The position numbers and the translations under genes were made by a program. 64,000 nt of DNA from Parcubacteria group bacterium Gr01-1014_13 (GTDB lineage: Bacteria > Patescibacteriota > Patescibacteriia > Magasanikbacterales > GWA2-37-8), in NCBI GenBank assembly GCA_007376295.1, contig VMGB01000001.1:182643-246642 (forward strand). The letters run 5' to 3'. Under the pieces are notes generated by a model, which made no database searches, was not told where the DNA came from, and saw nothing but the letters and a program-made list of their open reading frames with translations. Shown piece after piece: positions 19,970-24,476 of this stretch. The stretch's first letter is position 1, and each line of letters begins with the position of its first letter.

Positions 19970-20272
19970 TTAATTTGAGCTGTTTTCTGAGTATGAATCT
20001 TCGAGCCGAACTGCCTTTACGTGAATAGTATGGTACACAATCTTTCGAGGAAGTGAGGGCATAATTTTACGAATAATTTTATATGCATCCTTATCGATAA
20101 TCTTTGTTTCCATCACCGTACGAATTTTTGCCTGGTCTAATTGAGAAAGAGCTAAAATTTTCTCGTTTAAACCGTTGCCTTTAATAGTCGTTCTAAAATC
20201 AATACTTTCGATAAATCTACCCTTTTTATCAAATGTATCAACACCAACAAGCCATACCTTGACTTCGGACAT
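19970..20272 (-). CDS. Hypothetical 100-aa protein on the opposite strand, between atpD and atpC. Start MSEVKVW chosen because it has a strong SD (AAAGGAGATAAAATG).
   Basis: Open frame with an AAGGAG Shine-Dalgarno. No recognisable family. It occupies a 387-bp gap that is normally less than 30 bp in atp operons. Confidence 0.5.
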   Translation of the reverse strand: MSEVKVWLVGVDTFDKKGRFIESIDFRTTIKGNGLNEKILALSQLDQAKIRTVMETKIIDKDAYKIIRKIMPSLPRKIVYHTIHVKAVRLEDSYSENSSN

Positions 20273-20313
20273 TTTATCTCCTTTGGGTAAAAAATTAACA
20301 CAAATAAGCATAT

Positions 20314-20742
20314 ATGTCAACACTTAAATTTAAAATCGTAACACCGGAAAAAGTAATTTACGAAAACGAAATTCTTCAAGTTACCATTCCTACTATGAGC
20401 GGTGAAATTACGATTCTTCCCAATCATATTCCTTTGGTTTCAGTGTTAAAAGCGGGGGAGATGAGAATAAAAGATAAAGACGGTGAACAGAATCTGGCAG
20501 TTTCCGGAGGATTTTTGGAAATACGCGGCAACAACGAAATTGTAATTCTGGCTGATCATGCCGAAAGAGCAATAGATATCGACACTGCTAAGGCTGAAGA
20601 AGCCAAGCAGAGAGCCGAAGAACAAATGAAAAATCTTAAAAACGTTCAGGATGTTGATTATGCCAGACTTCAAGCTGTTATTGATAGGGAACTCAACAAA
20701 ATAAAAATTGCTCGAAAATATAAAAACTTACCAAATAAATAA
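20314..20742 (+). CDS. atpC: F0F1 ATP synthase subunit epsilon
   Basis: LKFKIVTPEKVIYENEILQVTIPTMSGEITILPNHIPLVSVLKAGEMRI, the epsilon beta-sandwich plus C-terminal helices. Confidence 0.85.
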   Translation: MSTLKFKIVTPEKVIYENEILQVTIPTMSGEITILPNHIPLVSVLKAGEMRIKDKDGEQNLAVSGGFLEIRGNNEIVILADHAERAIDIDTAKAEEAKQRAEEQMKNLKNVQDVDYARLQAVIDRELNKIKIARKYKNLPNK

Positions 20743-20791: not shown

Positions 20792-21088
20792 TTATTCTGG
20801 TTTGCGCTTTGCTAGCTTAGCGGCTTTTTTCCAAACAGATTTTTTGGTACCGTGATCATTTTCAGCGTAATCACTAACATCGTTCTTAACCGGGAAAACA
20901 CCGGGCCTATAGAGAACCACAGTCCAATGCTTAGGTTTGTGTCCATACTCTTTACGCGGTTCAAACACGCGCACTGTTGATGGATGGCTTATAGAAAGCC
21001 AATGTTCGGGAAGTTTTGACCATCTATATTTTTGCACCCAGACGAAGTGGACACCGTCTACTACTTTGGGATTTCTTCTTGTGGCCAT
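20792..21088 (-). CDS. Small hypothetical protein, paralogue 1 (HWLSISHP...VRVFEP family, unassigned)
   Basis: Shares VHFVWV...HWLSISHP..VRVFEP...LY(K/R)PGVF with the adjacent gene. The track start is a TTG; internal ATG (MATRR) taken instead. Confidence 0.5.
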   Translation of the reverse strand: MATRRNPKVVDGVHFVWVQKYRWSKLPEHWLSISHPSTVRVFEPRKEYGHKPKHWTVVLYRPGVFPVKNDVSDYAENDHGTKKSVWKKAAKLAKRKPE

Positions 21089-21096
21089 AACACCGC

Positions 21097-21405
21097 TCAA
21101 CTCACCGGACGCTTTGCCCAGTTAACGGCCTCTCGCCAAGCAATTCTTTCAGTGCCTAGGTACATTTCCGCATCATACTTGTCGTCGCTGCTAGGCGGAA
21201 TGAATACCCCGGGTTTATAAAGGATCGTCATCCACTCACCATCTTCTTTCGTAAGCGGATGTGGTTCAAACACACGGACTACTTGCGGATGACTAATAGA
21301 AAGCCAGTGCCCCCGAAGATTTGATCCTTCATACTGATCCACCCATACAAAGTGCACATCCAAAACGATTTTGGGTTTTCTCTCGTTATCATTTTTGTTT
21401 TGCAT
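21097..21405 (-). CDS. Small hypothetical protein, paralogue 2
   Basis: About 45% identical over the core to paralogue 1. GGAGG Shine-Dalgarno 5 nt upstream of ATG (MQNKNDNE...). Confidence 0.5.
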   Translation of the reverse strand: MQNKNDNERKPKIVLDVHFVWVDQYEGSNLRGHWLSISHPQVVRVFEPHPLTKEDGEWMTILYKPGVFIPPSSDDKYDAEMYLGTERIAWREAVNWAKRPVS

Positions 21406-21554
21406 GATATCCTCCATTCCTCAAGGGAATTTGTTGAGCGTAGTTAATCACAAAACAACTATGTCAGTCAACTTGACATTTTAAAAAATATATATTGCCT
21501 TCAATTTTTGGTTTTGATATAATCTTTGTAGTATTTATCTTCTAACCTCTACGT

Positions 21555-21683
21555 ATGGAAAAATGCAATAAATGTAGTATACCTTTTGAAGACCAAGTTG
21601 ATTTTTGTTTATGTAACGAAAGCCTCTGCGCACCCTGTTGCGAGTGCGACGATACTTGCGGCTGTCAATGCGGTGAAAAATAG
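21555..21683 (+). CDS. Cysteine-rich 42-aa peptide (11 Cys), not in the ORF track: MEKCNKCSIPFEDQVDFCLCNESLCAPCCECDDTCGCQCGEK
   Basis: Intact ATG..TAG frame. Own promoter-like TTGCCT-N17-TATAAT (21495-21523) and own terminator (21716-21738). No obvious Shine-Dalgarno. Confidence 0.4.
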   Translation: MEKCNKCSIPFEDQVDFCLCNESLCAPCCECDDTCGCQCGEK

Positions 21684-21715
21684 TTGAAAAACAGATGGGC
21701 ATAGATTATACTACG

Positions 21716-21738
21716 AACAGCCAAATAGGCTGTTTTTC
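21716..21738 (+). terminator. Rho-independent terminator after the Cys-rich peptide
   Basis: Stem aacagcc/ggctgtt with loop aaata, followed by TTTT. Confidence 0.5.
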
Positions 21739-21786: not shown

Positions 21787-22944
21787 ATGATTAAAAAAAT
21801 AAAAATTAAAAAATCACATAAAACTATTCAAAAAGATTTTGAATTAGATTTAGAAAAAACAACAGTTATTACTGGGAAAAATAACTCTGGGAAAACAAAC
21901 TTTATTCAAGCGGTAAATGCTAAAAAAGACGTGGAATTTACTAATGCAGAGTTCTTGGATGAAAAAGATAAATTAATAATTCCAATTACTATTTATATAG
22001 CTGCAGAAAATATAAACCCTTCTGATAATGAATCAAACTCTTCGGCTAAAAAAAGTAGTTTGATACAAAATTTAGCAGAATTATTTTCTAATTTAGGAAT
22101 TAAATTTATTCTTGAAGAACAACCTAAAATTATTCAGGAAATAAAAACTTTAATAGATAAGGCGGATGAAAATTTAAAGGAATTCAGCGGAAAAAATGAT
22201 CATGGTATTAAAATAAAATTTAATGAAGGAGAATTGGACCCCGCTACCATAGCACAAGCCTTAATTAAAAAAATTATTGGAGACGAAAACGGAGAGGAGG
22301 TAGATCTAGACGATTTAGGACAAGGCACTCAAAGAATAATTGTTGCTTCAATTTTGAAAGCGTATGTGGATATTTTGATCGAAAGAAACAAACATTCTCA
22401 AGAACCAATACTAATTCTTTTTGAAGAACCCGAAATTTATTTACACCCTGAATTGAAAAGGACTCTTAACATAACATTAAAAAAGATAGCTGAGCAAGAT
22501 AATCATCAGGTTATAATTACGACCCACGATCCATACTTTGCTTATACTAATTTAAATGGTGAAAATAGCGTTGTTTACTCTTTTTTAAAAACTGCAGAGT
22601 ACACAGAAAAAACAGAGCCAGGTATTATATTTGGAATTGAAGATGAATTACTTCATATTCATCTTTTTGAAAAAATGATACAAATATTAAAGAAAAGTGG
22701 GAAGGTTAAATCTTTTATATTAGACCCTGGTAAAGAATTAGACATCTATATAAAGGGTTATTGCGGAAAAGAATTAAGAGCAAATACATGGTATAAAGAA
22801 AAAAAAGGCATAGAAGATAAGCTTTCTCTACCTTTACATATCAGGCATTTAATCCACCATCCTGGAGGTAAAGATAAATTCACTGATATTGATTTAGAAA
22901 AATCAATAGAAATATTAAATTTAATTCTAAGCAAAGCATCTTAA
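21787..22944 (+). CDS. AAA/ABC-type ATPase of the OLD/AAA_15-AAA_21 family (385 aa)
   Basis: Walker A VITGKNNSGKTNFIQAV, ABC-like signature region DLGQGTQR, and Walker B/D-loop ILILFEEPEIYLHPELKRTL...VIITTHDP. The C-terminal 130 aa has no obvious match; it may be a degenerate Toprim-like region (GIEDE...LDPGKELD). Confidence 0.8.
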   Translation: MIKKIKIKKSHKTIQKDFELDLEKTTVITGKNNSGKTNFIQAVNAKKDVEFTNAEFLDEKDKLIIPITIYIAAENINPSDNESNSSAKKSSLIQNLAELFSNLGIKFILEEQPKIIQEIKTLIDKADENLKEFSGKNDHGIKIKFNEGELDPATIAQALIKKIIGDENGEEVDLDDLGQGTQRIIVASILKAYVDILIERNKHSQEPILILFEEPEIYLHPELKRTLNITLKKIAEQDNHQVIITTHDPYFAYTNLNGENSVVYSFLKTAEYTEKTEPGIIFGIEDELLHIHLFEKMIQILKKSGKVKSFILDPGKELDIYIKGYCGKELRANTWYKEKKGIEDKLSLPLHIRHLIHHPGGKDKFTDIDLEKSIEILNLILSKAS

Positions 22945-22970: not shown

Positions 22971-24476
22971 ATGGATTTTATTAGTAAAACAACTTATTTA
23001 GAGTATTTATCTTGCGGTAAAAATGCCTGGCTTAGATGTTATAAACCGGAATTAAAATCATTATTTAAATTATCTGATTTTGATAAAAGCCTAGTAGATA
23101 AAGGAAACTTAGTGGAAGATTGGGCGCGCAAACTTTTTCCAGACGGCGTTTTAATTACCGAATCAGACGAAGAAGCTTTACGAATTACCAAACAGCATAT
23201 CGCAGATAAAACACACGTTATTTTTCAATCAAAATTCATTCATGACAAATTTTTGGCAAAAAACGACGTGCTTGAGTATGATAAATTTAATGATTGTTGG
23301 AATTTATACGAAATTAAAGGCACTAATACTTTAGACGAAAATGTAAAAGAAATAGATCATATAGAAGATGCCACTTTTCAAACTATTATTCTAAAAGCCG
23401 TAGGAATTAAAGTTGGTAAAGTATTCATTATCCACCTAAACAAAGAATACGTCAGAGAAGAAGAAATAAACGTGGAGGAGCTTTTTATTAAGGATGACAT
23501 AACTGAGGAAGTTAAAAATAGGGAAGAAAATACAAAAGAAAAAATGCAAAAAGCAGCCGAATGTTTATTTCAACAAAATGAACAAGCTTTGGTCTGTCAA
23601 TGTGTCTATTCAGGCCGAAGCGCGCACTGTGCAACATTTAATTACTCCTATCCCAACATTCCAGAATACTCGGTTCATGATTTATCTAGAATAGGGAATA
23701 GTAAAAAAAAGTTAGAATCTTTGGTTGATTCACAAATTTTTGATATAAATGAAATTCCTGAAGATTTTGAATTAACACCCAATCAGCAAAATCAAGTTTA
23801 TGTACACAAAACTCAAAAACCAATAGTAGATTTAGTGGCTATAAAAAAAGAGCTTAAATCGCTTGCATATCCTCTGTATTTTTTGGATTATGAAACATAC
23901 CCGCCGGCCATACCTTTGTTTAAGGGTTTTAAGCCATACCAACAAATACCATTTCAATTTTCTTTACATATAATAGATGATGAAGATAGCGAACCGATCC
24001 ACTTGGAATATTTGCACGAAAATGCTACGGATCCATCTTTGTCTATTATACTCAAATTAAAAGAAATGATTGGTCCAAATGGCAATATAATTACCTGGAA
24101 TAAAAGATTTGAAAAAGGAATAAATACACAATTAGCTGAAAGAAACCCGGAATATGCAGATTTTATTGAAGATATAAATAGTAGAATTTATGATTTAATG
24201 GAAATATTCCAAAAACAATTTTATGTTCATCCTGGTTTTAAAGGAAAAGTTTCCATAAAAAAAGTTTTACCTATTTTAGTTCCTAAATTAAGCTATAAAG
24301 AACTAGAAATAAAAGAGGGCGGATCTGCTATGGAAGCATGGTACGAGATGGTATTTGGATCTGGCTCACAAGCAGATAAAAATAAAATAGCTGACGACCT
24401 GCGAAAATATTGCGGTTTAGATACTTATGCAATGTATGCAATTTGGAAAGAATTAATGAAAATTGTATGGCAATGA
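22971..24476 (+). CDS. Cas4/RecB-like PD-(D/E)xK Fe-S nuclease N-domain fused to a DUF2779 domain (predicted RNaseH-like exonuclease)
   Basis: N-terminal Cys-containing region (LSCGKNAWLRCY), D...EIK motif (NDVLEYD...YEIKG), Cys cluster CQCVYSGRSAHC, and DUF2779 core YFLDYETYPPAIPLFKGFKPYQQIPFQFSLH. Confidence 0.65.
   Translation: MDFISKTTYLEYLSCGKNAWLRCYKPELKSLFKLSDFDKSLVDKGNLVEDWARKLFPDGVLITESDEEALRITKQHIADKTHVIFQSKFIHDKFLAKNDVLEYDKFNDCWNLYEIKGTNTLDENVKEIDHIEDATFQTIILKAVGIKVGKVFIIHLNKEYVREEEINVEELFIKDDITEEVKNREENTKEKMQKAAECLFQQNEQALVCQCVYSGRSAHCATFNYSYPNIPEYSVHDLSRIGNSKKKLESLVDSQIFDINEIPEDFELTPNQQNQVYVHKTQKPIVDLVAIKKELKSLAYPLYFLDYETYPPAIPLFKGFKPYQQIPFQFSLHIIDDEDSEPIHLEYLHENATDPSLSIILKLKEMIGPNGNIITWNKRFEKGINTQLAERNPEYADFIEDINSRIYDLMEIFQKQFYVHPGFKGKVSIKKVLPILVPKLSYKELEIKEGGSAMEAWYEMVFGSGSQADKNKIADDLRKYCGLDTYAMYAIWKELMKIVWQ

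Follow-up and report, generated by a model that had tools for sequence, protein, structure and literature searches.

A short gene on the forward strand of the genome studied here belongs to what is, judging by comparative sequence analysis, a genuine, conserved and unnamed family of small proteins of the Patescibacteria (CPR), often left uncalled in annotations and marked by a strictly invariant signature of eleven cysteines. Its product is predicted to be a cysteine-rich miniprotein that is probably well expressed. The gene lies in a stretch of DNA of 64,000 nucleotides (the window), where the frame running from the ATG at 21555 to the TAG at 21683 on the + strand translates into MEKCNKCSIPFEDQVDFCLCNESLCAPCCECDDTCGCQCGEK, a peptide of 42 aa with 11 Cys, exactly as an earlier note on this DNA had read it. 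Cysteine accounts for 26% of the residues, among which there are two Phe, and inspection by eye revealed no signal or leader peptide in the 42 residues. The probability of finding at least 11 Cys codons among 42 by chance is 1.5e-8, which corresponds to about 0.001-0.002 expected cases per window over six frames, and the runner-up among the 40-aa stretches in any frame of the window holds seven Cys. The absence of this frame from the program-made list of open reading frames, pointed out in the same note, extends to the public record, which holds no called gene with such a product. The identical frame is also present on a Logan contig from this organism (L042), where the gene calls skip it, and the gene was uncalled in four of the five loci checked.

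The gene was also described in the earlier note as standing alone, and in the window it is indeed monocistronic, with a promoter and a terminator of its own. The features of the locus are the following:

21467 to 21478, + strand: conserved palindrome GTCAACTTGAC(A), which contains TTGACA and lies about 40 nt upstream of the -10 element
21495 to 21500, + strand: -35 element TTGCCT, from the promoter scan
21515 to 21523, + strand: extended -10 element TGaTATAAT, from the promoter scan, in which TG precedes the hexamer TATAAT at 21518-21523
21530 to 21554, + strand: predicted 5' UTR of about 25 nt, A/T-rich and without a Shine-Dalgarno sequence, its start placed about 7 nt after the -10 element
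21555 to 21683, + strand: coding sequence of the acidic 11-Cys miniprotein, stop codon TAG included; 28 distinct homologues keep the 11 Cys
21716 to 21737, + strand: intrinsic terminator AACAGCC-AAAUA-GGCUGUU followed by UUU, the terminal hairpin in RNA folds

Homologues of the peptide were recovered by searches of increasing depth. A word-indexed search returned one homologue, 93% identical, and an exhaustive HMMER search added six further small proteins, while additional loci came from profile and pattern scans of genomes and metagenomes. Two of the HMMER matches (P0002 and P0005) are large eukaryotic repeat proteins and were set aside as compositional false positives. Among four sampled loci of AtpC homologues, three contained an uncalled copy of the gene. 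As it stands, the family comprises 28 distinct peptides of 40-54 aa from about 40 loci, found in Magasanikbacteria-like and other Patescibacteria. A tblastn search of phage and plasmid collections returned no copy of the peptide, and as far as the searches reached, the sequences recovered show a family confined to Patescibacteria.

Conservation of the cysteine pattern, which the earlier note had proposed to check, is complete. All 28 members fit the pattern C-x2-C-x9-11-C-x-C-x4-C-x2-CC-x-C-x3-C-x-C-x-C, and the 11 Cys are invariant despite an overall identity of about 50%. Other positions are conserved as well, namely Pro10, a hydrophobic residue at 11 and 24, Glu12, and Asn21. The members consist of 22-28% Cys, have a net charge of -1 to -8, and contain 0-2 aromatic residues and 0-3 His.

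The pattern of nucleotide substitution is that of a protein-coding gene. Between the window and its relative L001, differences at codon positions 1, 2, and 3 number 2, 2, and 14, with 13 synonymous against 3 replacement codons (pS 0.71, pN 0.03). In comparisons with more distant members, synonymous change has reached saturation (pS 0.5-1.0), whereas pN ranges from 0.05 to 0.33, and every one of the 11 Cys columns toggles between TGT and TGC. The comparison of synonymous and non-synonymous drift that had been proposed as a check thus comes out in favor of the gene, with saturated synonymous change, pN of 0.03-0.33 over all comparisons, and every Cys retained. Frame-breaking indels, which the earlier note had named as evidence that would speak against the peptide, do not occur: the + frame is intact in all 23 distinct DNA sequences. 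In terms of codon comparison, the gene is shown to be real and under strong purifying selection. An antisense frame at 21535..21702 is also open in 18 of the 23 sequences, an effect of composition alone; it is not conserved as a protein, because the wobble changes of the + strand hit its codon position 2.

These results bear directly on the proposal that the frame is open by chance or that the locus is instead a non-coding small RNA, to which only a negligible probability can be given. What speaks for it is that gene callers pass over the frame and that, as the earlier note had observed, the start codon is preceded by no clear Shine-Dalgarno sequence. However, the genome of the window is almost free of such sequences: a Shine-Dalgarno-like motif, even by a loose definition, precedes 6 of the 43 window ORFs that encode 180 aa or more, and the DNA around start codons is rich in A and T, so that its lack at this gene is normal and SD-less starts are the rule. 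A canonical AAGGAGG is present in L018 (Berkelbacteria), a distant member. Against a chance frame stand the expectation of about 0.001 per window, an open frame at all loci, and saturated synonymous change around 11 invariant Cys in the 23 sequences. As for a small RNA, which the earlier note had kept in play, Rfam scans of the locus with gathering thresholds and with E-values gave nothing relevant, and the predicted transcript has no unusual degree of structure (z = -0.54). Substitutions distributed by codon position, in a genome that does without Shine-Dalgarno sequences, effectively exclude the RNA reading on comparative grounds.

The signals that frame the gene are conserved too. A promoter scan recovered the TTGCCT and TATAAT elements claimed earlier, 17 nt apart and with 10 of 12 matches, and added the TG extension of the -10. 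An element of the form TTGC(C/G/T)N is found 17 nt 5' of the -10 in more than ten divergent loci (L001, L011, L015, L016, L017, L008, L020, L021, L024, L025, and L038), and an extended -10 of the form TGnTA(T/C/A)AAT is shared by L001, L011, L017, L008, L020, L021, and L024. Between the window and L001, identity is 100% from -10 to +20 but just 74-81% in the flanking coding DNA. The leader folds weakly (-6.7 kcal/mol, z = -1.5). Downstream, the terminator described as clean does form a hairpin, with arms AACAGCC at 21716-21722 and GGCUGUU at 21728-34 around the loop AAAUA, and this hairpin is terminal in RNA folds; the word clean is slightly generous, since the U-run that follows is short. Equivalent hairpins with a U-run lie 3' of the frame in L001, L002, L013, and L008, and many loci have a terminator in this place. 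The promoter and terminator architecture of the gene is thus a conserved one.

Upstream of this promoter, the GTCAACTTGAC element is identical in the window, L001, and L020, and near-identical in L024. L011, L008, and L021 have a TTGACA about as far from the -10 as well, placed 5' of the atpC terminator hairpin. It is not the -35 element of the Cys gene, since 39 nt from the -10 is too far. The intergenic region in which it is located is common to the Cys gene and the divergent s106 gene, and the element may be an operator, an UP-like element, or the promoter of s106. In six loci (L011, L017, L008, L021, L030, and L038), the intergenic region between atpC and the Cys gene has terminator and promoter overlapping, with the -35 inside the loop or the 3' arm of the atpC terminator hairpin and the T-run of the terminator serving as promoter spacer.

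In the window the gene order is atpA-atpG-atpD, o117 on the - strand, atpC, a convergent terminator hairpin, s102 and s106 on the - strand, and the Cys gene, followed on its 3' side by genes for an AAA_15/AAA_21 ATPase, a DUF2779 protein, DciA, a membrane protein, MreB, and MreC. The conserved neighbor is atpC on the upstream side, overlooked in the earlier note. The window's AtpC is 100% identical to that of Parcubacteria group bacterium Gr01-1014_13, with close relatives labelled Candidatus Magasanikbacteria, and in all Magasanikbacteria-like loci with upstream sequence (AtpC 52-100% identical to that of the window) the Cys gene is located 3' of atpC on the same strand. Similarly, atpC always precedes it in relatives with an AtpD 86-99% identical to that of the window, and the sole interruptions between the two genes are small minus-strand ORFs in some lineages. 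In L002, L013, L005, L012, L037, and L029 the gap from atpC is 15-50 nt, the shortest distances being 15-17 nt, and contains neither a promoter nor a strong terminator, which makes co-transcription with the atp genes likely. In most loci, including the window, an atpC terminator and a separate promoter uncouple the Cys gene from the operon. The gene on the 3' side varies, and can encode an MsbA-like ABC exporter, a UvrD/PD-(D/E)XK helicase-nuclease, a DUF2779 protein, an AAA_15 ATPase, or an HhH-GPD protein. Four other lineages have no atp genes in view near the Cys gene:

L016/L031: Cys gene between two GT4 glycosyltransferase genes
L032: Cys gene 5' of genes for a GT4, a nitroreductase, and another GT4
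L027/L028: Cys gene between genes for a membrane protein and a WecG/TagA transferase
L018/L034: Cys gene between genes for an epimerase and a Cas4-like nuclease

The earlier note had raised the question of whether the peptide always precedes an ATPase-nuclease pair. It does not. Among the fetched loci, the AAA_15 gene is found in the window's own genome only (the window and L042), and it is missing even from three loci with peptides 81-93% identical, L001, L021, and L024, where an ABC exporter, DUF2779, or UvrD-nuclease gene follows; this rules out the pair as a partner of the Cys gene. The ATPase itself (21787..22944, + strand, 385 aa) is of the ABC type, has AriA, Old, and GajA as its best PADLOC matches, and contains no Toprim or other nuclease domain according to Pfam. 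Close relatives, L021 for one, have an MsbA-like exporter in its place, a difference that suggests a recent defence-like insertion beside the DUF2779 gene. The slot before dciA, in turn, holds the 501-aa DUF2779 protein (22971..24476, + strand) in the window, L001, and L021, and a UvrD/PD-(D/E)XK (AddB-like) helicase-nuclease of 980-1118 aa in most relatives (L002, L005, L011-L013, L024, and others), a distribution that suggests the replacement of one nuclease type by another.

Several small genes are lodged in and around the atp operon of this clade. The paralogous s102 (20792..21100) and s106 (21097..21417), both on the - strand and inserted between atpC and the Cys gene, encode proteins of 102 and 106 aa that are 50% identical and share the motif VHFVWV...HWLSISHP..VRVFEP. 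They have homologues at the same place in L001/L019, L020, L023, L024, and L041, and no match in Pfam, NCBIfam, or PADLOC. The gene o117 (19970..20323, - strand; 113-117 aa) interrupts the operon between atpD and atpC; its product matched no family and has distant homologues in the same slot of L035 and L036 (20-23% identity, E 1e-3 to 7e-6). A Fic-domain gene inserted between atpG and atpD in L038 (1547..2623) is another case of foreign genes lodged in the operon. Five of the related loci (L011, L013, L014, L015, and L017) come from MAGs titled 'Candidatus Udaeobacter sp.' or 'uncultured Gammaproteobacteria bacterium', labels that look wrong because their AtpD is 86-97% identical to that of the window and they have the same CPR gene order.

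Searches of family and structure collections place the peptide in none of the named families tested, which suggests that the 11-Cys family stands apart from all of them. With the window peptide as query, Pfam gave no family at E<=1, and with eight members it gave no metallothionein family, the bacterial SmtA type included, at E<=10. NCBIfam had nothing for the window peptide, nor for 18 members at E<=10, the SCIFF model being part of that search, and PADLOC assigned no family to the peptide or to the members. In a profile search of the PDB with alignment A2, the best matches were the Hakai RING and a LIM domain, at E = 1-2.3; with the larger alignment A3 there was no match, and the RING and LIM hits were gone. 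AlphaFold2 models from alignments of 8 and 11 sequences reached pLDDT values of 54 and 47, with no confident apo fold, as is expected for a fold templated by metal. In the literature on Patescibacteria small proteins, metallothioneins, and atp operons, we found no description of such a Cys-rich family, nor any report of a metallothionein from Patescibacteria/CPR.

By composition, metallothionein-like peptides remain the best fit, as proposed in the earlier note. Operationally, a metallothionein is a protein of less than 10 kDa with about 15-35% Cys arranged in CxC, CxxC, and CC motifs and few aromatic residues or His; all 28 members lie within these bounds of size and Cys content. The resemblance extends to a mass below 6 kDa, a Cys content of 22-28% in those same motifs, perhaps the scarcity of aromatic residues, and an apo form for which no stable fold is predicted. 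Mammalian metallothioneins bind metal in a Zn4Cys11 cluster in the alpha domain and a Zn3Cys9 cluster in the beta domain (PMC10243857), and the alpha domain equals the peptide in its count of 11 Cys. There are also clear differences. The peptide has no sequence homology to SmtA/BmtA-type proteins or to any Pfam metallothionein family, and it is very acidic, whereas classical metallothioneins are rich in Lys and Ser. These are also more variable between their Cys, in contrast to the fixed spacing and conserved non-Cys residues of the present family. Finally, the genomic context is not a metal-responsive one: no metal-responsive regulator, efflux pump, or metal-homeostasis gene was found among the flanking genes and most of the long ORFs of the window, and no metal-related gene was found near the Cys gene in the loci of relatives.

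We infer with good confidence, from the peptide's make-up, that it binds metal through its cysteines; metal binding, the identity of the metal, and the physiological role are all arrived at in this way. The more specific proposal, a cytoplasmic metallothionein-like metal-thiolate miniprotein acting as a putative metal buffer, is drawn from composition and has about an even chance of being right. According to this model, the gene would be transcribed alone in the window genome, between the extended -10 promoter and a terminator of its own, and translated without a Shine-Dalgarno sequence, like most genes of that genome. The 11 Cys, in their CxxC, CxC, and CC motifs, would enclose several ions of Zn(II)/Cd(II) or Cu(I) in a polynuclear metal-thiolate cluster, and the acidic 42-residue protein would then act in the cytoplasm as a metallothionein-like metal buffer, and possibly as a thiol or redox buffer as well.

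Other fates for so many cysteines have to be weighed against this metal-thiolate buffer. The peptide could, improbably, be a very small iron-sulfur protein that carries electrons in the manner of ferredoxin or donates Fe-S clusters in an anaerobic CPR bacterium. Eleven Cys in about 36 residues are enough for one or two clusters, the hosts are anaerobic groundwater CPR, and in L018, L001, and several more loci the next gene encodes a nuclease of the Cas4/AddB PD-(D/E)XK type, a class of enzymes that often carry an Fe-S cluster. Of eight members searched in Pfam, one matched Fer4 marginally (E = 0.93), but none matched Fer4, rubredoxin, or HiPIP significantly, and the ferredoxin motif CxxCxxCxxxCP is found in 0 of the 28 members. 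The dense CxC and CC spacing, typical of bridged thiolate clusters rather than cubanes, speaks against the iron-sulfur reading too, as does the absence of a conserved partner oxidoreductase nearby. More remote still is a RiPP precursor of the SCIFF/ranthipeptide kind, suggested in the earlier note, or a Cys-rich peptide exported through the MsbA-like ABC transporter; both would be very surprising and are already largely refuted. The peptide is short and Cys-rich, and a gene for the 580-aa ABC exporter comes next in about 60% of the distinct loci. This exporter, however, is a generic MsbA-like protein without a C39 peptidase domain, it is missing from the window, L001, L002, L013, L024, and the lineages without atp genes, and terminators often separate its gene from the Cys gene. 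No SCIFF or other RiPP model in NCBIfam or Pfam matched. The observation that no radical-SAM maturase is nearby was borne out, since the flanking genes and most of the long ORFs of the 64 kb window, housekeeping genes only, include no gene for a radical-SAM/SPASM protein, LanM, YcaO, or peptidase, and the loci of relatives are alike in this. There is no double-glycine motif, and neither is there a split into leader and core, because cysteines appear from residue 4 onward (3 in some members) and the peptide is evenly conserved along its length. SCIFF precursors are comparable in being short Cys-rich bacterial peptides of about 45 aa. They differ in having six cysteines in forty-five residues, against the 11 of the window peptide, in the adjacent maturase, leader, and NCBIfam match that the Cys gene lacks, and in their hosts, SCIFF being a family of Clostridia and not of Patescibacteria.

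Closer to the metal-thiolate buffer is a structural zinc-cluster miniprotein that acts through a specific partner, possible though rather doubtful. The fixed Cys spacing, together with the conserved Pro, hydrophobic, and Asn positions, fits a defined fold, and would suit a partner-bound structural Zn module equally well. The N-terminal half gave the weak RING/LIM-like matches (E about 1), but these were lost with the larger profile, and AlphaFold returned no zinc-finger-like fold. A comparison with the CXC/pre-SET domains of MSL2, tesmin/TSO1, and SUV39 is instructive here, since the C-terminal 22 residues of the peptide, with nine Cys that start as C-x-C-x4-C and end as C-x3-C-x-C-x-C, have a comparable density and order of CxC motifs, and by analogy these nine Cys could form a bridged trinuclear cluster. 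The consensus of the Zn3Cys9 superfamily is CX[C/H]X2-13CX4-7CXCX5-60CX2-4CX1-2CX2-15CXN (PMC3447885); written as a regular expression it fits none of the 28 members, which lack the signature C-terminal Asn, and membership was rejected. In addition, CXC domains are eukaryotic DNA-binding modules inside large proteins, whereas the present peptide is bacterial and of 40-54 aa. A position right 3' of atpC could hint at a role other than buffering, and in this version, considered unlikely, the peptide would be an accessory or regulatory F1Fo factor, for instance one that modulates the enzyme together with the epsilon subunit in response to Zn or redox state; its gene would be expressed as the last of the operon or directly behind it. 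There is little probability, likewise, that it is a CPR-specific sensor of Zn or redox state, expressed with or after atpC and inhibiting, for example, ATP hydrolysis, or that such a factor plays a role like that of AtpTheta, the zeta subunit, or IF1 with an unrelated sequence. For a link to the ATP synthase speak the same-strand adjacency to atpC throughout the Magasanikbacteria-like clade at AtpC identities of 52-100%, the likely co-transcription in six loci, and the fact that atpC stays while the 3' neighbor changes. On the other side, the region from atp to DciA-MreB-MreC is syntenic in the clade, so that the adjacency may be merely inherited; L016/L031, L018/L034, L027/L028, and L032 have no atp genes in view; and in most loci, the window among them, a terminator and an own promoter separate the gene from the operon. 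Small accessory proteins of F-type ATP synthases encoded in or near atp operons include AtpI, the cyanobacterial AtpTheta, and the alphaproteobacterial zeta subunit, and to our knowledge none of these is Cys-rich. The likeness consists in a small gene tied to the atp operon, seemingly co-transcribed in several lineages in the case of the Cys gene. The peptide has no sequence similarity to these proteins, and its gene is unlinked in four lineages and mostly has its own promoter and terminator.

The genomes of Patescibacteria (CPR) are tiny and contain numerous genes of unknown function, to which this family adds a conserved miniprotein. Its recovery also indicates that genes of less than 50 aa in genomes without Shine-Dalgarno sequences can be rescued by comparative codon analysis. 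Were a link to the ATP synthase to prove true, the peptide would represent a new type of regulator. If it is instead a metal-thiolate protein, the family would be a new bacterial metallothionein-like family and would offer a compact 11-Cys scaffold for metallobiochemistry.
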